From Patescibacteria group bacterium (GTDB lineage Bacteria > Patescibacteriota > WWE3 > JAUXAW01 > JAYEID01): a DNA stretch of 64,000 nt. Each line of letters opens with the position of its first letter. Position 1 is the stretch's first letter. The notes under the pieces are model-generated. The model searched no databases. It was not told where the DNA came from and was given only the letters and a program-made list of their open reading frames with translations. The DNA is taken from assembly GCA_034659915.1 (NCBI GenBank), contig JAYEID010000013.1, positions 10,627 through 74,626 of the forward strand, read 5' to 3'. The translations under genes were made by a program, and so were the position numbers. Of this stretch, positions 4,939 through 60,931 are shown piece after piece.

Positions 4939-5973
4939 ATGTCCAGGCGCAAAAACTCGTATGCGAGTTTTGGTAAGGGGGTAGATACACTTGAATCGTG
5001 GAGCTTTGAGGAACTAAAAAGGGCGGTGCAACTACCCGAAGATTTGTTGGAATGGGAGTCAACACCGTACCGCAAGGATCAGGCAAAAAGAGTTTTGCTC
5101 GGTGCTGCGCGAGAGTTACGCCTTGCCGCTCTTCGCGTTATAGCTGAGCAGATGAGACATGTAGCCCGTCGCGGGAGCCCCTCTTGGGCTGGTAGTTCCT
5201 ATTCCCCAGCTTTGCGCAACCGGGTACTCTTTTTATTGGAACAACTGTCCTCTGAGCAATTGCCACAGCCAACTGGGGGTCTGGTCTGGCAGCAAAGGTT
5301 CGCGATTGAGGAACTTGTTCTTAATGTGTTCGCTGATGAGTGTTTCGAAAGAACTCTGTACGGCGATAGCTTTGGTAGGGAATATTTTCATGTGTTTCAG
5401 CGGATTTGGGAATGTACGATAGCCTTGCCGGAGAAGCGCTATTCACCTACACGAGAGTTTGTTGAGCTGTACGATATGTTCTGGAGGAGATTTGTCGATA
5501 AAAGCAAAGCACCTCCTTTAGGTGCTCATATGGAAATGCTCCTTCGTAAGAGAGCTTACAGCAACACCTCAGAAGAGTTTTCGGAGGAGCTAAAAGAGTT
5601 CATTGACAGCGTGTGTGCGTGGTTAATTCGAGACGAAAAGAATGATGACCTGCTTCACTACATACGCCGTTATGGATTTTCGCAGACACGGCACGTACTC
5701 GAAAGACGTTTTTGGAAGATGCTCCTCAGGGCTGCGGAGCTGAGTGTGACAGATGACGAAGACCGCACTGCTTTTATGAAAATGCCTGTTCAGTGGGTAT
5801 TCGGGAATACAGAGGCTTGTAAGCACATCTCTAACCGGGTGGTTACCTCGTGGTGTGTAATGACAAGCCGCTCCATTGATGGCGCTGTGCGCGAGCCGTT
5901 CGAGGTTCCGCAATGGGTGAAGCGGACAAAGGTTTGGCTGGAATTTGAGAAGTGTGTGGAAACCTATACTTGA
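4939..5973 (+). CDS. Hypothetical protein (344 aa), Arg/Trp-rich, no recognised domain
   Basis: Long ORF with AAGGAGG RBS (4926-4932); local GC visibly higher than neighbouring genes; followed by a hairpin and T-run terminator at 6071-6118. Confidence 0.5.
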   Translation: MSRRKNSYASFGKGVDTLESWSFEELKRAVQLPEDLLEWESTPYRKDQAKRVLLGAARELRLAALRVIAEQMRHVARRGSPSWAGSSYSPALRNRVLFLLEQLSSEQLPQPTGGLVWQQRFAIEELVLNVFADECFERTLYGDSFGREYFHVFQRIWECTIALPEKRYSPTREFVELYDMFWRRFVDKSKAPPLGAHMEMLLRKRAYSNTSEEFSEELKEFIDSVCAWLIRDEKNDDLLHYIRRYGFSQTRHVLERRFWKMLLRAAELSVTDDEDRTAFMKMPVQWVFGNTEACKHISNRVVTSWCVMTSRSIDGAVREPFEVPQWVKRTKVWLEFEKCVETYT

Positions 5974-15605: not shown

Positions 15606-15670
15606 TTTTTGCGCCGGGGGTACGCGTTTTCAAGAACCGCGCGCCCGACTAGTGACTTTGGTGACTGCGC

Positions 15671-15760
15671 GCTTAGAGAAAAATTTGCTTTGGTCCGGGG
15701 TTAGTAGATAACTAATTGTAAGCAAATTTTTCTATGCTCTTGAAAACGGCACCCCCGCCA
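15671..15760. repeat. Diverged partial copy of the 172-nt element (3' module) downstream of ftsK
   Basis: GCTTAGAGAAAAATTTGCTTT...AAGCAAATTTTTCTATGCTCTTGAAAACGGCACCCCCGCC aligns with the 3' half of the 172-nt element plus the GGCACCCCCGCC boundary motif. It is flanked by ~45-nt direct repeats (15577-15625 and 15801-15850). Confidence 0.75.
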
Positions 15761-15867
15761 TGCTTACAGCGTGAAAGTATCTGTTCTTAATCTGATTAGC
15801 GTATTTTGATTTCCAATCCCAGCGAAGTGACGTAAATTTCGGGGGTCCGCCGGATTCGCGCGAGACT

Positions 15868-15985
15868 TTGACAGGCACCCCCCTTTCAGGGCCGCTCGCA
15901 CCGTTCAGCGTTGGAGAGTAGGAAAGAGAACCGCTCGCTTTGTGATCAAAACCCTTCATGGCGGGAGCCTGCCAAGTCCCTTTCC
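15868..15985. repeat. Intergenic repeat family B, copy 2 (upstream of rodZ-like)
   Basis: Shares GGCACCCC..CT.TCAGGGCCGCTCGC.CC ... CGCT.GCTTTGTGATCAAAA..CCCTTCA.GGCGGGAGCC.GCCAA with 53603-53760. Confidence 0.75.
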
Positions 15986-17592: not shown

Positions 17593-19629
17593 TTGCAACC
17601 ACCGCTTTTTTCCGTTATTCTTAAGAACACAGTGACAGCTAGAGAATTGATTGAAAAGTATATTTCCTTTTTTGAGGCGCGTGGTCATGTTGAGATTGCT
17701 GGGGCTTCCTTAGTACCAGAAAATGATCCTTCTGCACTTTTTATCTCTGCTGGTATGCACCCTCTAATTCCCTTCTTGTTGGGAGAAGAACACCCTGCTG
17801 GTAAGCGCTTAGTTAGCTTACAAAAATGTATTCGAACAAATGATATTGAGCAAGTAGGTGACGGGTTTCATCATACCTTCTTCTTAATGCTTGGAAACTG
17901 GTCTTTGGGTGATTATTTTAAAAAAGAGGCAATCTCTTTTAGTTTTGAATTTCTTACTTCTTCTGAGTGGTTAGGGTTAGCTCCGGAAAGGTTGTATGTT
18001 TCTGTTTTTGCTGGTGATGAGACTGCTTCCCGGGATAAGGAGTCAATTAAGTATTGGAAGTTAGAATTTAAGAAAGTAGGGATTAAGGCTGAGGTGGGTG
18101 AGAGGATATTCTTCTTTGGAAAAGAAGAAAACTGGTGGGGACCTGTAGGTGATACAGGACCTTGCGGACCTGATACAGAAATATTTTATGATATAGGCAA
18201 AGACCATTGTGGTCCTAATTGCGATCCCTCTTGTCAATGTGGGAAATATATTGAAATTTGGAATGATGTGTTTATGGAATTTAAAAGAATCCGCCGGTTG
18301 GCGGACCGCAAACCGCAAACCGTGAACCGTGAACCGCAAGATAAAGAGCGGAAGGCGGAGAGCGGTTCGCGGAATGCCGATTACGAATATGTTCCTTTAG
18401 AGCAGAAAAATGTAGATACGGGGATGGGTGTAGCTAGGGTTGTTGCAGTTACTAGCGGCTACGCAGATGATGATTATAAAACCGACCTTTTCCACCCTAT
18501 TATTTCCAAGATTGAAGACTTGTCTGGTAAAGAATACCAGCAATTAGAAGTTAACAATGAACAATCGTTAGTTAGTTCAATGCGCATTATTGCTGATCAT
18601 GTACGGGCAGCTGTTTTTGCTATCAGTGATGGTGTAGTACCTTCAAATACAGATCGAGGTTACGTGGTTAGGCGACTAATTCGCCGTGCTGTTCGTCATG
18701 GACATGCTTTAAACATCCAAGATAGCTTTTTGGGGCAAGTTGCAGAGGTTGTAATTGAGAATTATAAGGATCTTTTTCCTGGGTTGGAAAGTGAGGAGGA
18801 AACAATACTTACTGAGATTTCCGATGAGGAAAAAAGATTTGGTAAGGTTTTGCGGAGAGGTTTGAAGCATTTTGAAAAGTTGGTTGAACAAAAAGTTGGT
18901 GATGAAACGCTGCCGCACCTGCCTGCCGGCAAGGCAGGTTCCCCAGCCCCTGGGGCTGCGGCCAAAGAAGCCCCAGGGGCTTCTCCTGCGCTGGGCGAGC
19001 GAATTACCGGGGAAGAAGCCTTCGACCTTTACCAAACATATGGGTTTCCGTTGGAGTTAACCAAAGAGCTGGCAGAGGAAAGGGGTTTAGCGGTTGATAG
19101 AAAGGGGTTTGAAGAGGCCTACAAAAAGCACCAAGAGAAATCCCGTTCTGGTGCAGATAAGAAATTTAGTGGGGGTTTGGTAAGTGAATCTGAAGAAGTT
19201 ATAAAACTGCATACAGCTACCCATCTTTTGCACGAAGCTCTGCGCCAGGTATTGGGTGCTCATGTAAAGCAGGAAGGGTCGAACATTACTCCCCAAAGAT
19301 TGCGGTTCGATTTTTCCCATCCAAAAGCAATGACGGAGGAGGAGATTGGAGAAGTCGAAGCTCTAGTTAATGAAAAAATAGAGGAAGATTTGCCCGTGCG
19401 GAAAGAGACCATGTCATTAGAGGAGGCAAGGGAGCGGGGTGCTTTAGCGTTTTTTACAGATAAATATGGAGATGAGGTGAAAGTTTATTCTATTGGCGGA
19501 TTTTCAAAAGAAGTTTGCGCTGGTCCTCATGTTGATTCTACCGGGAAACTTGGTAAATTTGAGATAATAAAGGAAGAATCTGTGGGTCGCGGTAAACGGA
19601 GAATCCGTGCTATACTGAAAAAGGATTAG
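17593..19629 (+). CDS. alaS: Alanyl-tRNA synthetase, short form (catalytic, tRNA-binding and editing domains; no C-Ala domain)
   Basis: Class II AlaRS core (ARGHVEIAGASLVP...FISAGMHP...QKCIRTNDIE..GDGFHHTFFLMLGNWSLGDYFK) and an editing domain with HxxxH...CAGPH. The start is uncertain: TTG at 17593 or GTG at 17630 (MTARELIEKY). The gene carries an in-frame 78-nt GC-rich repeat at 18913-18990. Confidence 0.9.
   Translation: MQPPLFSVILKNTVTARELIEKYISFFEARGHVEIAGASLVPENDPSALFISAGMHPLIPFLLGEEHPAGKRLVSLQKCIRTNDIEQVGDGFHHTFFLMLGNWSLGDYFKKEAISFSFEFLTSSEWLGLAPERLYVSVFAGDETASRDKESIKYWKLEFKKVGIKAEVGERIFFFGKEENWWGPVGDTGPCGPDTEIFYDIGKDHCGPNCDPSCQCGKYIEIWNDVFMEFKRIRRLADRKPQTVNREPQDKERKAESGSRNADYEYVPLEQKNVDTGMGVARVVAVTSGYADDDYKTDLFHPIISKIEDLSGKEYQQLEVNNEQSLVSSMRIIADHVRAAVFAISDGVVPSNTDRGYVVRRLIRRAVRHGHALNIQDSFLGQVAEVVIENYKDLFPGLESEEETILTEISDEEKRFGKVLRRGLKHFEKLVEQKVGDETLPHLPAGKAGSPAPGAAAKEAPGASPALGERITGEEAFDLYQTYGFPLELTKELAEERGLAVDRKGFEEAYKKHQEKSRSGADKKFSGGLVSESEEVIKLHTATHLLHEALRQVLGAHVKQEGSNITPQRLRFDFSHPKAMTEEEIGEVEALVNEKIEEDLPVRKETMSLEEARERGALAFFTDKYGDEVKVYSIGGFSKEVCAGPHVDSTGKLGKFEIIKEESVGRGKRRIRAILKKD
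18913..18990. repeat. GC-rich palindromic repeat element inserted in-frame in alaS (copy 1)
   Basis: ~78 nt, ~90% identical to 29191-29269. Contains palindrome CCTGCCTGCCGGCAAGGCAGG and the inverted pair AGCCCCTGGGGCT / AGCCCCAGGGGCT. It is translated as PAGKAGSPAPGAAAKEAPGASPA. Confidence 0.85.
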
Positions 19630-28708: not shown

Positions 28709-29416
28709 ATGTCTGTTGTCGCACGAAGTTTTTATAAGGGAAAGACTACGAGTATTGCTAAAAACCTTTTGGGAAAGGTTTTGGTTCGCCACGTAAAGCC
28801 CACGGAGAGTGGGTCACGTGCCACCGAAGTTGAGAATGAAATAAACAAGAAAGGAATAATCGTAGAGACGGAGGCTTATTTAGGACCGGAGGATAAGGCT
28901 TGCCATTCCTTCAGAGGGAAGACAGAAAGAACGGAGGTAATGTTTGGACCGGCGGGGCATGCTTATGTTTATTTGGTTTACGGAATTCATTATATGTTTA
29001 ATATTGTGACTGAGGCTCCGGGAGAAGCTGTTTTGGTTCGAGCACTTGAACCCCTTGGTGGTGAATTTGGTAAACGCATTGCTTCCGGTCCGGGTAAACT
29101 GACAAAGTGGCTTAATATTGATAAAAGCTTCAACGGTTGGGATTTGACCAAGGGGGAGGGGTTGTGGATTTCCCATGAGCCGCGATCTTCGCCGTACCTG
29201 CTTGCCGGCAAGGCGGGTTCCCCAGCCCATGGGGCTGCGGCCAGAGAAGCCCCAGGGGCGTCTCTTGCGGCGGAGGATTTAGACCACGGAAATTTCGAAA
29301 TTTCTTCCGCAAAAAGAGTTGGTGTAGATTACGCCGAAGAGTGGTCGGAAAAACCGCTTCGTTTTTTCATCAAAGATAATCCCGCTGTTTCTACAGCGCA
29401 GGACTCCTTATGTTAA
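28709..29416 (+). CDS. 3-methyladenine DNA glycosylase (MPG/AAG family)
   Basis: VETEAYLGPEDKACHSFRGKTERTEVMFGPAGHAYVYLVYGIHYMFNIV matches the MPG family; carries the in-frame GC-rich repeat at 29191-29269. Confidence 0.8.
   Translation: MSVVARSFYKGKTTSIAKNLLGKVLVRHVKPTESGSRATEVENEINKKGIIVETEAYLGPEDKACHSFRGKTERTEVMFGPAGHAYVYLVYGIHYMFNIVTEAPGEAVLVRALEPLGGEFGKRIASGPGKLTKWLNIDKSFNGWDLTKGEGLWISHEPRSSPYLLAGKAGSPAHGAAAREAPGASLAAEDLDHGNFEISSAKRVGVDYAEEWSEKPLRFFIKDNPAVSTAQDSLC
29191..29269. repeat. GC-rich palindromic repeat element inserted in-frame in the MPG glycosylase gene (copy 2)
   Basis: Same element and same translated frame as copy 1 (LAGKAGSPAHGAAAREAPGAS). Confidence 0.85.
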
Positions 29417-39910: not shown

Positions 39911-39972
39911 CCTTGATGGCAGAACTTTAGCAGGCACCTCGCCCGTAGAAAGTTTCCGGTTGCGGAACGCGT

Positions 39973-40144
39973 CGGTGCTACACGCTTTCAAGAGCCCTTG
40001 TACTACATAGAGTACAGGGCAGGCCGTGCTTAGGATTGAGCGCGTTTACCCCGAACCCTGCGTGGTTTGGGGCTTAGAGAAAAATTTGCTTTTAGTTTAT
40101 TGTTAATTGATAGGTTATTGTGGGCAAATTTTTCTATGCTCTTG
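39973..40144. repeat. 172-nt structured intergenic repeat, copy 1 (between rpoB and rpoC)
   Basis: 100% identical to 50854-51025; internal hairpins (CTTGTACT/AGTACAGG; CCCCGAACC/GGTTTGGGG with a G-U pair) and a long-range inverted repeat TTAGAGAAAAATTTGC / GCAAATTTTTCTATGC. Confidence 0.9.
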
Positions 40145-44039: not shown

Positions 44040-44498
44040 ATGCCAACTATTCAACAACTTGTCCGAAAAGGACGCAAAAAACCAAAAAAGGAAAAGAGCA
44101 CTCCAGCGTTGGGGGATATTTATTCTTCTCTTAACAGAGAAAGGAAGGAGTTAGAGGCACCTTTTAAGAGGGGTGTAGTTTTAGACGTTCGAACAAGGGC
44201 TCCTAAGAAACCTAACTCTGCGCTTAGGAAAGTTGCTCGAGTACGCCTTTCAAATGGAAAAGAGGTCACTGCTTACATTCCGGGTGAGGGGCATAACATT
44301 ACAGAGCACGCTGTGGTTTTGGTTCGGGGTGGGCGTGTTCAGGACCTTCCTGGTATTAAATATACAATTGTTCGGGGGCATTATGATGTAGCGGGGGTGG
44401 AAGGGCGAGTAACATCGCGCTCTAAGTATGGAACAAAGGAAAGCGGGGAGATTGGTGGCGCAACTGTGACGGGGGGAGAAGAGTCTGCGGAAGTATGA
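44040..44498 (+). CDS. rpsL: 30S ribosomal protein S12 (with ~14-aa internal insertion and C-terminal extension)
   Basis: [13 protein letters not shown]...[55 protein letters not shown]. Confidence 0.95.
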
Positions 44499-44592
44499 TT
44501 TAACTAGATTGTTATCTTGCTAGCCAGTTAGCCAGCTATCTTGTTAAGTGTTAAGGAGTTAAAGGATATACAATAGATATACGGTAGATATG

Positions 44593-44670
44593 CAATTGTT
44601 CATCTATTGTTTATCGCGATTCTGATCGCAGTTTAACGGCAACTTCTGAGTTGCATTTTACGAGTGTTTA
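44593..44670 (+). ncRNA. Conserved intercistronic structured element (rpsL-rpsG), copy 1
   Basis: CAATTGT...CGCGATTCTGATCGCAGTTTAACG shared with 56461-56535; hairpin GCGAT-tctg-ATCGC and a second hairpin GCAACT-tctg-AGTTGC whose stem covaries with GCAGTT-tccg-AACTGC in copy 2. Confidence 0.5.
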
Positions 44671-44731
44671 GTGAGTTTATCTAGTAGTTAAGTTATGATT
44701 ATTTTATCGATTACCTTTTTGGCTTAAAGTC

Positions 44732-50832: not shown

Positions 50833-50853
50833 TAGGTAGTATTGTGGATGCGC

Positions 50854-51025
50854 CGGTGCTACACGCTTTCAAGAGCCCTTGTACTACATAGAGTACAGGG
50901 CAGGCCGTGCTTAGGATTGAGCGCGTTTACCCCGAACCCTGCGTGGTTTGGGGCTTAGAGAAAAATTTGCTTTTAGTTTATTGTTAATTGATAGGTTATT
51001 GTGGGCAAATTTTTCTATGCTCTTG
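50854..51025. repeat. 172-nt structured intergenic repeat, copy 2 (between rplW and rplB)
   Basis: Identical to 39973-40144. Confidence 0.9.
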
Positions 51026-52010: not shown

Positions 52011-52068
52011 GCATTTTTAAAAGCACCAAACATCAAATACCAAGTTCCAGAAGTTTGTTATTTGAAGT

Positions 52069-52096
52069 TTGGAGTTTGGAATTTAAAATTTAGTAT
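52069..52096 (+). promoter_or_regulatory. Conserved promoter-like module TTGGAG-16nt-TAGTAT upstream of rpsS
   Basis: Same architecture and spacer-sequence family as modules upstream of dnaK (8-35) and rplV (52447-52474). Confidence 0.4.
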
Positions 52097-52113
52097 TTAG
52101 AATTTAAAAAATT

Positions 52114-52407
52114 ATGTCTAGATCAACAAAAAAAGGTCCTTATGTGGACCCGAGACTATTGGAAAAAGTTAAAAAAGCAAAAAAGACTAGCTCTCAGGAG
52201 CCGATAAAAACATGGGCGCGAGGTAGTAATATAAGCCCAGAAATGGTGGGTGTAACTATAGCTGTTCATAATGGGCGGGAGCATGTGCCTGTTTTTATTA
52301 CTGAGGCTATGGTGGGCCACAAATTAGGTGAGTTTGTGCCAACTCGTACTTTCCGTAAGCACGGGAAGAAGGGTGTCAAATCAACCCTTTCCGAAGGCCG
52401 TGTTTAA
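52114..52407 (+). CDS. rpsS: 30S ribosomal protein S19
   Basis: S19 family ([29 protein letters not shown]). Confidence 0.95.
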
Positions 52408-52446
52408 GGGAGAATTTCGAAATTCGAATCTCGAAATCCAAAATAT

Positions 52447-52474
52447 TTGGAGCTTAGGATTTAGAATTTATGAT
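52447..52474 (+). promoter_or_regulatory. Conserved promoter-like module TTGGAG-16nt-TATGAT upstream of rplV
   Basis: ATTTGGAGCTTAGG.ATTTAGAATTTA is shared almost verbatim with positions 6-29 upstream of dnaK. Confidence 0.4.
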
Positions 52475-52484
52475 TTAAATTATT

Positions 52485-52823
52485 ATGGTTGTTTATGCTC
52501 GAAGCAAAAGTTTACCAATATCTCCGCAGAAGATGAACTTGGTTTTGGATTTAATTCGGGGAAAAGATATTGCAGAAGCAAGGAAGATACTTACTTTTTC
52601 TACAAAGAAGGCAGCCGGTCTTGCTAAGAAGGCTTTGAATTCAGCTGTAGCAGATGCTAAGCACAATGAGGGTTTAAGAGAAGATGAGCTAAAAATAGTG
52701 GAAGCCCGAGCAGATAAGGCTCCTACTTTGAAGCGGATCCGGCCTAGAGCTAGGGGGCGTGCTGATAGAATTTTAAAAAGACGTACACATCTTACCATTG
52801 GTGTAGGGACGGAAGAAGGATAA
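52485..52823 (+). CDS. rplV: 50S ribosomal protein L22
   Basis: L22 family, 112 aa. Confidence 0.93.
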
Positions 52824-53591: not shown

Positions 53592-53602
53592 TATGAAAAG
53601 AC

Positions 53603-53760
53603 TTTGGCGGGCACCCCGCCTCTCAGGGCCGCTCGCGCCTGTCGAAGTTTAAGTCTGATTTGGTTAAGCGCTTGCTTTGTGATCAAAAGTCGAATGGTGT
53701 CAGTGAATAATTGTAGCGACTTTTGATCAAAACCCTTCAAGGCGGGAGCCAGCCAACGTC
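53603..53760. repeat. Intergenic repeat family B, copy 1 (between rpsC and rplP), with a nested hairpin insertion
   Basis: Same modules as 15868-15985, plus a ~45-nt insert forming TGATCAAAAGTCG...CGACTTTTGATCA (53680-53730), flanked by direct repeat GATCAAAA. Confidence 0.75.
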
Positions 53761-53850
53761 TTGTTAGATTCTTAGTTTGGAGTTTTTGATTTGTTGTTTA
53801 TTTGAAATTTGTAATTTGTTCCGCCGGCCGGCGGATTGGAATTATTAACT

Positions 53851-56416: not shown

Positions 56417-56460
56417 TTGCAATTGTAATGCAGTGGTAATATGGTGGTAAAACAGTAAAA

Positions 56461-56535
56461 CAATTGTATTACTATCGTTTTACGCGATTCTGATCGCAGT
56501 TTAACGCAGTTTCCGAACTGCATTTAACGTGAGCG
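56461..56535 (+). ncRNA. Conserved intercistronic structured element (rpsN-rpsH), copy 2
   Basis: See copy 1; compensatory base changes keep the second hairpin. Confidence 0.5.
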
Positions 56536-56547
56536 TAGCGAGCTATT

Positions 56548-56940: not shown

Positions 56941-57198
56941 TGACAAACGCGAATCTACACAAATTAAAAGCGAACGAACGCTAATGGAAAAGGAAAGAAG
57001 TAGCAGATTTTCTCGTCCCTGGAAGCCCGCGCTCCTTGTAATGTCCATTTCGAGTTCCGACACTGGTCGAAATGAGAAATCTCAAGAGTAAATAACTATT
57101 GTTTTATGTGGGTCTGCCCGCGATTTAGTGAGGAGTTCTGACGACGAACAATTAACGTGGCTTCTTAGCCACAAATTACGCGCTTTTGGCGCATTATT

Positions 57199-60659: not shown

Positions 60660-60931
60660 TGTTTAACCTGTCTCACTGCTTTTTGGCATGCTAGTTATTT
60701 TTAGTAGTGTTAAGTGTAGTAAAGATTAGTAAAGTAGTTGTAAAGTGTTGAGGAGAATTGTTGCTTTTTTAACTCGTTAAGAGTTAAAGAGTTAAGGGTT
60801 AAAAAGAGGGAGAAAGCTAGGTTTGAATACTTAACTTTTTAACAGTTTAACGCGAGCTCTTGCGAGCACTTAACGATTGTGGAATTAGTTTTAGAATTAT
60901 TGAGAAGTTGCCTTAATGGCCCGCTTTACCT

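Follow-up and report, generated by a model that had tools for sequence, protein, structure and literature searches.

The spacers between rpsL and rpsG and between rpsN and rpsH of an uncultured Patescibacteria (Candidate Phyla Radiation, CPR) bacterium carry related hairpin elements, and these are very probably members of a dispersed, modular repeat family, here called Family A, rather than an operator specific to the two sites. The source is a stretch of 64,000 nt of this organism's DNA (the window; a few kb past it were also read). Family A consists of lineage-specific hairpin repeats that lie between the genes of the rpoB-rpoC-str-S10-spc-alpha cluster and between those of at least one further operon related to translation. 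No description of it was found in Rfam or by full-text literature search; it is previously undescribed, and in kind it resembles the mosaic repeats of the BIME/BOX type. A preliminary description of the window had proposed that the two spacers share one regulatory or processing element in place of two distinct operators. A common structured element is indeed present, but it is not special to these two spacers, as members of the family occupy about 12 spacer positions; a shared site for processing or for a trans-acting factor remains a live reading of it.

The two focal copies lie between the genes for uS12 and uS7 (rpsL-rpsG, copy c1) and between those for uS14 and uS8 (rpsN-rpsH, copy c2). 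Positions 44593-44638 and 56461-56506 align without gaps at 85% identity, and an exact 24-mer, CGCGATTCTGATCGCAGTTTAACG, is found at 44615-44638 and 56483-56506; no match of the CGCGATTCTGATCGCAGTTTAACG type, with three mismatches allowed, arose in 100 dinucleotide-preserving shuffles. The preliminary description had noticed here a GCGAT-TCTG-ATCGC hairpin common to both spacers and a second hairpin whose arms differ between the copies yet stay complementary. Both are confirmed: in hairpin 2 two neighbouring pairs are swapped on both sides between c1 and c2 (A-U to G-C, and C-G to U-A). An independent Logan assembly of the source organism (L081), which extends past the window into rpsD-rpoA, is identical to the window over 13,005 nt, so the observation is not an assembly artefact.

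The covariation that was first apparent from two copies, too few to prove much, holds and becomes stronger when 9 to 17 copies are compared. In the nine-copy alignment (A3) 96% of the cells are standard pairs and 8 of the 11 pairs have changed on both sides; helix 1 is 100% paired with both-side changes in three of its five pairs, and helix 2 is 92.6% paired with such changes in five of six. The observed covariation score was reached by none of 500 shuffles, and sliding the partner by 1-3 columns lowers the pairing to 22-47% (22-54% across all tests in slid register). The 17-copy alignment is 93.8% paired with 28 double-change cells, a result again reached by 0 of 500 shuffles, though this alignment was fitted to the model described below and so leans towards structure. 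RNAalifold returns the same two hairpins unguided. Nearly every stem change is a transition; hairpin 1 keeps the pattern GYGRN and hairpin 2 the pattern YRRYT, and on the sense strand there are six G.U cells and no A.C cells. Judged by these sequence comparisons, Family A is under purifying selection for the pairing of its stems, the sequence of its loops and its U-rich linkers.

The window contains, in order, dnaK ... rpsO-pnp ... rnj, ftsK, alaS, nusA-infB, yceG and then the cluster rpoB-rpoC-rpsL-rpsG-fusA-tuf-rpsJ ... rplO-secY-ybaB-adk-map-infA-rpsM-rpsK. Nearly all genes are on the + strand, which carries 60 of the 67 window genes. The spacers of the cluster are unusually long (median 93 nt, maximum 356 nt). 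A covariance model built on nine two-hairpin cores (calibrated quickly, so that its E-values are rough) was run on the window with filters off and gave exactly four significant matches, all on the + strand and all in operon spacers: rpsN-rpsH and rpsL-rpsG with 77 bits each, ybaB-adk (copy c10) with 33 and rpsH-rplF (copy c8) with 32. No model match below E = 1 was found in the 44 kb upstream part of the window. A fifth copy of the source organism lies just past the window, between rpsD and rpoA (L081).

Relatives were gathered by way of uL2, by way of uS7, uS8 and AlaRS homologues and contigs, and by a pattern scan of metagenomes; they were thus sampled mainly through ribosomal protein genes. 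The closest relative is genome GCA_964581885 (loci L001 and L089), whose uS7, uS8 and uL2 proteins are 84%, 82% and 90% identical, respectively, to those of the window genome; it has copies in rpoC-rpsL, rplW-rplB, rpsH-rplF, ybaB-adk, infA-rpmJ and rpoA-rplQ. Loci L082, L090 and L091 contribute copies from rplB-rpsS, ybaB-adk and map-infA, L087 has copies in rpoC-rpsL and rpsL-rpsG, and L125, from the unbiased metagenome scan, has one in the yqeY-ybeY spacer downstream of rpsU. Some of these are orthologous to copies in the window: c8 corresponds to the copy at 4391-4504 of L089, and c10 has orthologues in L089 and L090. The total is 17 distinct copies in five related genomes, and 22 of 22 model matches are in the sense orientation. 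A more distant relative (L088, uS7 67% identical) has compact spacers and no copy, and among 80 genome loci anchored on uL2, L001 is the sole close relative and the motif is missing from the other 79. The metagenome scan gave no match with the pattern GCGRTTCTGAYCGCANTTTWACG and 84 with TTWWCGCAGYTTCYGARCTGC, one of them a true member (L125) and 83 unrelated; the collection is incomplete here, in that the known JGI relative L087 is absent from the TTWWCGCAGYTTCYGARCTGC matches. Most of the unrelated matches come from two loci, a conserved one in human-gut sequences and one in soil sequences. In the L098-L179 set about 60 human-gut contigs have an identical hairpin, GCAGCTTCTGAACTGC, within a longer inverted repeat (AAAATGCTTTTAATTTA...TAAATTAAAAGCATTTT), and a further conserved locus, with GCAGCTTCTGAGCTGC, recurs in about 20 soil contigs; neither is related to Family A.

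The copies are modular (Table 1). At the 5' end are two to four short tandem direct repeats, either GATATACnnnn or GTAATACnnnn with an 11-nt period or, alternatively, GTTAAAGA with an 8-nt period. The second part is a CAATTG-centred palindrome (hp0) whose arms repeat the tandem unit; these arms covary across subfamilies (GATAT...ATATC versus GTAAT...ATTAC), and in GTTAAAG-type copies the palindrome is a long AU-rich hairpin of up to ~22 bp. The third part consists of one to four hairpins of 5-6 bp, with a loop that is nearly always T-TCTG-A or T-TCCG-A (U-UCYG-A), and every small hairpin is followed by a U-rich linker of the UUUWACG type (AGTTTAACG, CATTTWACG or ATTTATCG; the variants TTTATC, TTTTAC and TTGAC also exist). 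The terminal unit at the 3' end is a CGAGC-N3-4-GCGAG direct repeat, which could pair as C-G / tandem G.A / G-C, or a GC hairpin instead. In about half of the copies this last unit is 4-7 nt ahead of the next start codon (...GCGAGCTATT-ATG, ...GGCGCATTATT-ATG), and several copies end 4-7 nt before ATTATT-ATG. Units have been gained, lost and swapped: the ybaB-adk copy has CGAGC-TCTT-GCGAG in the window and CAGTT-TCTG-AACTG in L090, and that of L089 has two additional units. The 5' repeat zone of the c1 type recurs in the L001 rplW-rplB and L125 copies, and the terminal unit of the c2 type in L081 (rpsD-rpoA) and L089 (infA-rpmJ). In c1 the minimum free energy (MFE) fold also offers an alternative, longer stem, in which 44566-44578 pair with 44602-44615, and the element ends ~50 nt before the rpsG start.

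Table 1. Parts of the four Family A copies in the window (positions in the window)
Feature	Position	Strand	Description
c1 (rpsL-rpsG), 5' repeat zone	44541..44597	+	GTTAAG/GTTAAAG x3 (44543, 44550, 44558), then GATATAC/GATATGC x3 at 11-nt spacing (44565, 44576, 44587)
c1, hp0	44585..44606	+	imperfect palindrome TAGATATGCAATTGTTCATCTA centred on CAATTG; MFE folds
c1, hairpin 1	44616..44629	+	GCGAT-TCTG-ATCGC
c1, linker	44630..44638	+	AGTTTAACG, U-rich TTTWACG motif
c1, hairpin 2	44639..44654	+	GCAACT-TCTG-AGTTGC
c1, linker and terminal unit	44655..44680	+	linker ATTTTACG, terminal unit AGTGTTTAGTGAGTTTAT
c2 (rpsN-rpsH), 5' repeats and hp0	56435..56473	+	GTAATAT (56436), GTAAAAC (56447, 56455); hp0 palindrome AGTAAAACAATTGTATTACT (56454-56473)
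c2, hairpin 1	56484..56497	+	GCGAT-TCTG-ATCGC
c2, linker, hairpin 2, linker	56498..56529	+	AGTTTAAC; GCAGTT-TCCG-AACTGC (56506-56521); ATTTAACG; covariance-model match 56478-56529, 77.4 bits
c2, terminal unit	56530..56547	+	TGAGCGTAGCGAGC, then TATT abutting the rpsH ATG (56548); without Shine-Dalgarno
c8 (rpsH-rplF), diverged copy	57094..57192	+	model match 57102-57157, 31.9 bits, E 1.8e-7
c8, units			GTGGG-TCTG-CCCGC (57108-57121); GGAGTTCTGACGACG (57132-57146); GTGGCT-TCTT-AGCCAC (57157-57172)
c8, 3' part			AAATTACG; GC hairpin CGCGCTTTTGGCGC (57179-57192); then ATTATT-ATG
c10 (ybaB-adk)	60707..60875	+	model match 60838-60875, 32.8 bits, E 9.5e-8
c10, 5' part			GTAAAG/GTTAAG tandem repeats (60707-60755); long AU-rich hairpin CGTTAAGAGTTAAAGAGTTAAGG...CTTAACTTTTTAACAGTTTAACG (60775-60852)
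c10, 3' part			unit CGAGC-TCTT-GCGAG (60853-60867); linker ACTTAACG

The surroundings of c1 have some features of their own. A 10-codon mini-ORF (open reading frame; ATGATTATTTTATCGATTACCTTTTTGGCTTAA) at 44696-44728 stops 3 nt short of the rpsG start; the string GGCTTAAA occurs ahead of the rpsL start as well, and its complement TTTAAGCC is found ahead of rpsG in L001. The uS12 protein encoded by 44040-44498 is 152 amino acids long, with a C-terminal extension of ~25 amino acids past the usual end that is kept in L001.

Single copies of Family A are dispensable and turn over between spacers. The preliminary description had made its case depend on finding the motif in the orthologous spacers of related genomes, and on this point the outcome is mixed. 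The closest relative has no element in its rpsN-rpsH spacer, which is 8 nt long; its rpsL-rpsG spacer of ~90 nt retains only the 3' half of hairpin 2, a linker and the terminal unit (L001), as if an ancestral copy had lost its 5' part by deletion. The more distant relative L087 has a complete copy in rpsL-rpsG, so this position, which is occupied in two genomes and has remnants in two more, is probably ancestral. Of the three genomes in which the rpsN-rpsH spacer can be read, on the other hand, only the window genome has a copy there. One spacer further along, the relative's rpsH-rplF copy is 83% identical to the window's rpsN-rpsH copy, and its rplW-rplB copy matches the one in rpsL-rpsG of the window at 84% identity; in the window, rplW-rplB itself is occupied by a repeat of another family instead (Family B, below). 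Because these non-orthologous pairs are 83-84% identical across genomes and c1 and c2 only 73% identical inside the window genome, the subfamilies predate the split of the two genomes. Between window and closest relative, codons are 88%, 94% and 57.7% identical at positions 1, 2 and 3 (3.3 kb), and the orthologous spacers are 84% (ybaB-adk, 271 aligned nt) and 72% (rpsH-rplF) identical. By this yardstick the subfamilies have been kept well above the near-neutral rate, with no sign of concerted evolution or of a recent burst.

The orientation of the copies has to be read against the composition of the strands. The GC skew of the + strand is +0.19 to +0.29 throughout the window, and its third-position skew is +0.21 in minus-strand genes and +0.38 in plus-strand genes. 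Since it is G-rich even at the third positions of minus-strand genes, the + strand is probably the leading strand of replication. The sense strand of L125 is also G-rich, and every copy is on the G-rich strand. A replication-coupled mechanism acting on hairpins of single-stranded DNA would likewise give one orientation and tolerate G.T pairs. Orientation together with G.U pairs was considered as proof of function as RNA and was rejected, as the sense strand is the G-rich replication strand. With regard to location, the 36.7 kb upstream of rpoB (5.1 kb of it intergenic) have no copy, against four in the cluster (p = 0.037), nor is there any in 22.6 kb of non-ribosomal, syntenic sequence of two relatives. 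The family has so far been seen only in translation-related operons, for which the evidence from distribution is modest.

Searches for known elements were negative. Rfam gave no match in the whole window at gathering score and only chance-level matches in 24 kb at E < 5 and in the two spacers alone at E < 10; the ribosomal protein leader models, to which the preliminary description had pointed, are thus without a match, and a known ribosomal leader, ribozyme, tRNA-like element or 5S mimic was rejected on the same grounds. The strings CCGAACU and UAGUGUG resemble 5S rRNA, but no 5S model matches; the Rfam scan found no rRNA gene in the window, and none is present in any fetched locus. Mimicry of an anticodon arm or T-arm was rejected because the loop lengths do not fit, and an integron attC site (GTTTAAC fits RYYYAAC) because the genes are core genes in conserved order and the order of the sites is reversed. 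Viral contigs gave 18 pattern matches with no family member among them, and BLAST against phages and plasmids gave no match. When intrinsic terminators were sought (a G+C-rich stem with at least 5 U in 8), no hairpin of c1 or c2 passed; the only one to do so is the last GC hairpin of c8 (57180-57192), after which comes ATTATTATG, the rplF start. No sigma-70-type promoter was found on the sense strand in c1, c2 or c8; there is a weak 9/12 site at 60870-60897, and the number of promoter sites is not above that in shuffles (35 versus 29.4 +/- 6.6).

Nor does Family A have the hallmarks of a miniature inverted-repeat transposable element (MITE). It has no terminal inverted repeats (the 5' end is tandem direct repeats, the 3' end GAGC...GCGAG, and only hp0 is palindromic); no target-site duplication is evident when filled and empty sites are compared, where divergence is high; and near-identical copies are missing, c1 and c2 being 73% identical and c8 and c10 scoring 32-33 bits against 77. 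With the REP/BIME elements it shares the mosaic make-up, 17 copies being assembled from few unit types with gain and loss of units, but not the alternating or inverted arrangement, as all loops read TCYG on the sense strand. A fixed position, as expected of S7 and S8 operators, is not found, since positions vary among relatives.

The reading that we prefer, while giving it a little less than an even chance, is that Family A is a co-transcribed, BIME/BOX-like array of RNA hairpins that acts as intercistronic punctuation in processing, stability or insulation. The element's having a function for the host as RNA we regard as evenly balanced, and the particular mechanism of processing and stabilisation set out here as doubtful. 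The mechanism is drawn by analogy with REP/BIME stabilisers and with the RNase III sites of phage T7, and in it we infer, rather than observe, that the element is transcribed as RNA and processed, that it stabilises the message and that it has a partner. The elements would be transcribed along with the operon and act in cis as RNA. An endonuclease might process the transcript at the long 5' hairpin and at the single-stranded U-rich linkers; the tetraloop hairpins left on the fragments would then shield the cistrons on both sides, the upstream one against 3' exonucleases such as PNPase and the downstream one against the 5' exonuclease RNase J. The genes for RNase J, PNPase and nusA are all inside the window. 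The same hairpins may keep the start region clear of competing structure, a region that is AU-rich and without Shine-Dalgarno sequence: such sequences are essentially missing from this genome (an SD-like motif is found ahead of 3 of the 67 genes in the whole window), and AU-rich strings, ATTATT or TAAATT for example, stand in front of the start codons. Conservation of the loops and linkers points to one trans-acting partner shared by the copies. An extension of this reading, which we consider unlikely, takes Family A to be a dedicated RNA signalling system of a clade that lacks Shine-Dalgarno sequences, the arrays being reloadable sites for one trans-acting factor that coordinates read-through, processing and access to the start. 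That factor would be an antitermination complex of the Nus type, or else an RNase or RNA-binding protein peculiar to the lineage. With sites placed redundantly along the supraoperon, single ones could come, go or move between spacers while the function as a whole persists.

Several observations weigh against punctuation by RNA hairpins. The MFE of single copies is no better than that of shuffled sequences (z = -0.4 and -1.1), so the support for structure comes from the comparison of copies and not from folding energy. Copies have been lost without obvious consequence, as in the relative's 8-nt rpsN-rpsH spacer. The sense-only orientation does not separate an RNA from a DNA reading, and G.T wobble is possible in single-stranded DNA as well. 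The case for confinement to translation operons depends on a single window (p ~0.04), a single metagenome match and a control of ~23 kb. Finally, the genome has other palindromic repeat families, one of them (a 79-nt repeat, below) in-frame in two proteins, encoded by alaS and mpg, as is typical of selfish elements. This last point speaks for the main competing explanation, which we hold to be somewhat unlikely: that Family A is selfish DNA, a non-autonomous repeat of the REP/BIME or IS200/IS605 style that moves by way of hairpins of single-stranded DNA on the lagging-strand template, is tolerated in operon spacers and has no function for the host. The conserved loops and TTWAC-type linkers would then be the signals by which a transposase encoded elsewhere in the genome recognises and cuts the repeat. 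The differing positions in close relatives, the near-identical copies in different spacers, the modular mosaic with its gained and lost units, and the presence of all copies on the G-rich and probably leading strand, as replication-coupled transposition of single-stranded DNA predicts, all fit. Yet no transposase, RAYT or reverse transcriptase is found in the 64-kb window or the fetched loci, inverted doublets and terminal inverted repeats of the whole element are lacking, no copies occur in ~60 kb of non-ribosomal sequence, and phage, plasmid and viral collections have none. The identity of 73% within the genome and 83-84% across genomes, where synonymous identity is 58%, also points to long-term purifying selection and not to bursts.

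Two further explanations share the RNA premise. In processive antitermination, which we consider improbable, the hairpin and the UUUAACG linker would act like the boxB-boxA(-boxC) of rRNA operons and reload a Nus-type complex on RNA polymerase, which could then pass the long, structured and untranslated spacers of the supraoperon of >25 kb. The hairpin is indeed followed by a U-rich single-stranded motif with TTTAAC, the core of boxA, and in several copies a GU-rich sequence comes next (GTGTTTAGTGAG, TTAGTGTGAG); copies are several per operon, redundant, dispensable and always in the sense orientation; nusA is in the window; and about one quarter of the predicted non-rRNA boxA targets are translation genes (PMC5725501). 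Set against the gamma-proteobacterial consensus GYTCTTTAANA (PMC5725501), which may not be that of this host, the best matches are GCTCTTTAC (L089 rpoA-rplQ) and TGCTCTTAACA (L081 rpsD-rpoA), but c1 and c2 match the TTTAAC core only and miss T3-C4 of this consensus (AGTTTAACG, ATTTTACG, ATTTAACG), and the linkers vary (TTTATC, TTTTAC, TTGAC). Least probable of all, in our view, is a shared translational operator, in which the hairpins would be the target of one repressor, a ribosomal protein or another, that controls the genes after them (uS7 and uS8 in the window). Conserved loops on covarying stems are what a hairpin that binds a protein classically shows, several copies stop a few nt short of a start codon, and rpsL-rpsG is occupied or retains remnants in four genomes in all. 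However, the downstream genes are so varied (rpsL, rpsG, rplB, rpsS, rpsH, rplF, adk, infA, rpmJ/rpsM, rpoA, rplQ and ybeY) that a single-protein operator is unlikely; the closest relative has no element before rpsH and has lost most of that before rpsG, c1 ends well short of the rpsG start, and Rfam returns no ribosomal leader, not even at E < 10. The preliminary description had drawn attention to the coincidence of both spacers with autoregulatory operators of E. coli. This is correct for S7, whose site lies between rpsL and rpsG, but not for S8, whose target is a structured part of the mRNA across the start of rplE and is not in rpsN-rpsH (PMC3616713).

Comparison with known systems places Family A near the enterobacterial REP/BIME elements, which are likewise short imperfect palindromes in transcribed intercistronic and other extragenic DNA, form mosaics with conserved linkers and vary among strains. 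REP and BIME sequences act as mRNA 3' stabilisers and modulate expression within operons. They have no sequence similarity to Family A, whose units point one way, unlike the alternating units of BIMEs and the inverted doublets of REPINs; Family A further differs in its compensatory stems and conserved loop, in that no RAYT is seen, and in its occurrence so far in translation-related operons only. The BOX elements of Streptococcus pneumoniae (boxA-boxB(n)-boxC), ERIC and Correia/NEMIS are similarly modular with a variable number of internal units. These are co-transcribed and predicted to form stable RNA, and some are cut by RNase III or RNase E, which alters mRNA stability. They are near-identical, lie in either orientation and are spread genome-wide, whereas Family A is 73% identical within the genome, sense-only and built of ~23-nt units. 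The RNase III hairpins of the early mRNA of phage T7 offer an analogy of mechanism only, as hairpins between the cistrons of a long polycistronic transcript. Cleavage by RNase III leaves protective stem-loops on the T7 products. The T7 sites are single, long, irregular duplexes and not arrays of 5-6-bp tetraloop hairpins, and cleavage in Family A is only proposed. The antiterminator sites of rrn operons and lambda nut resemble Family A in having a hairpin beside a U-rich UUUAAC motif, repeated along a long unit on the sense strand, but only the UUUAAC core of GYTCTTTAANA is matched, and Family A units are in tandem 2-4 times. The E. coli ribosomal protein operators are also structured RNA in ribosomal protein operons, and one Family A copy shares their rpsL-rpsG location, but Family A precedes many unrelated genes, at positions that are not conserved, and matches no Rfam leader; the E. 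coli operator RNAs in question are narrowly confined to Gammaproteobacteria (PMC3616713). The TAACTGA heptamer of Beggiatoaceae and cyanobacteria forms tandem direct repeats in intergenic DNA upstream of genes and is proposed to act post-transcriptionally (PMC4679880); it recalls the 8-11-nt tandem repeats of the 5' zone, but differs in sequence and has no hairpin array.

In the most conserved operons of this clade the spacers are expanded to 100-350 nt and hold at least three structured repeat families, one of them with clear covariation and with constraint above that of synonymous sites. To our knowledge the Patescibacteria, with their small streamlined genomes, have almost no experimentally studied gene regulation. 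If Family A functions as RNA, it would give the first described intercistronic control or processing signals of the phylum and would bear on the expression of a 25-kb polycistronic unit without Shine-Dalgarno sequences; if it is selfish, essential operons of reduced genomes are also colonised by hairpin repeats. In either case the covariance model is a handle for a genome-wide census.

The other repeats noted in the window are the following. Family B is a structured repeat of ~176 nt present at 39969-40144 (rpoB-rpoC) and 50850-51025 (rplW-rplB), the two being 99% identical, with a partial copy at 15651-15765 between ftsK and a helix-turn-helix (HTH) gene; in relatives it occurs at 5178-5445 and 9179-9314 of L085, 2617-2711 of L001 and 1347-1453 of L089. 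Its closing helix is ~20 bp (GGGGGTACGCGTTTTCAAGA / TCTTGAAAACGGTACCCCC), and it has no Rfam match. Short-read assemblies break inside it, and L081 starts at window position 50996. Family C comprises long AU-rich hairpins of short repeats with an A/C-rich 5' arm, a G/U-rich 3' arm and many sense-strand G.U pairs, at 5-40 (upstream of dnaK), 52011-52113 (rplB-rpsS) and 52400-52500 (rpsS-rplV); similar hairpins are found in fusA-tuf of L082, rpsG-fusA of L085 and several spacers of L092. The motif GACTTTGRCRGGCACCCC...TYTCAGGGCCGCTCGC in the rpsC-rplP spacer (53592-53835) and upstream of the HTH gene (~15860-15910) may be a fourth family. Small hypothetical ORFs (45-68 amino acids, no Pfam match) are called over repeat-filled spacers at 13610-13795 of L081 (61 amino acids, rpsD-rpoA) and at 1162-1299 and 10402-10608 of L089, and are probably spurious. 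The 79-nt repeat mentioned above is G+C-rich and palindromic and lies at 18912-18990 and 29191-29269 (91% identical) within the ORFs of alaS and of the methylpurine-DNA glycosylase gene (mpg). Both copies encode the same peptide, (L)AGKAGSPAxGAAAxEAPGAS, and resemble Rickettsia palindromic elements; in AlaRS the repeat is an in-frame insertion of 32 amino acids that is missing from a 600-amino-acid homologue, and the protein has a second insertion of ~28 amino acids near residues 231-259.

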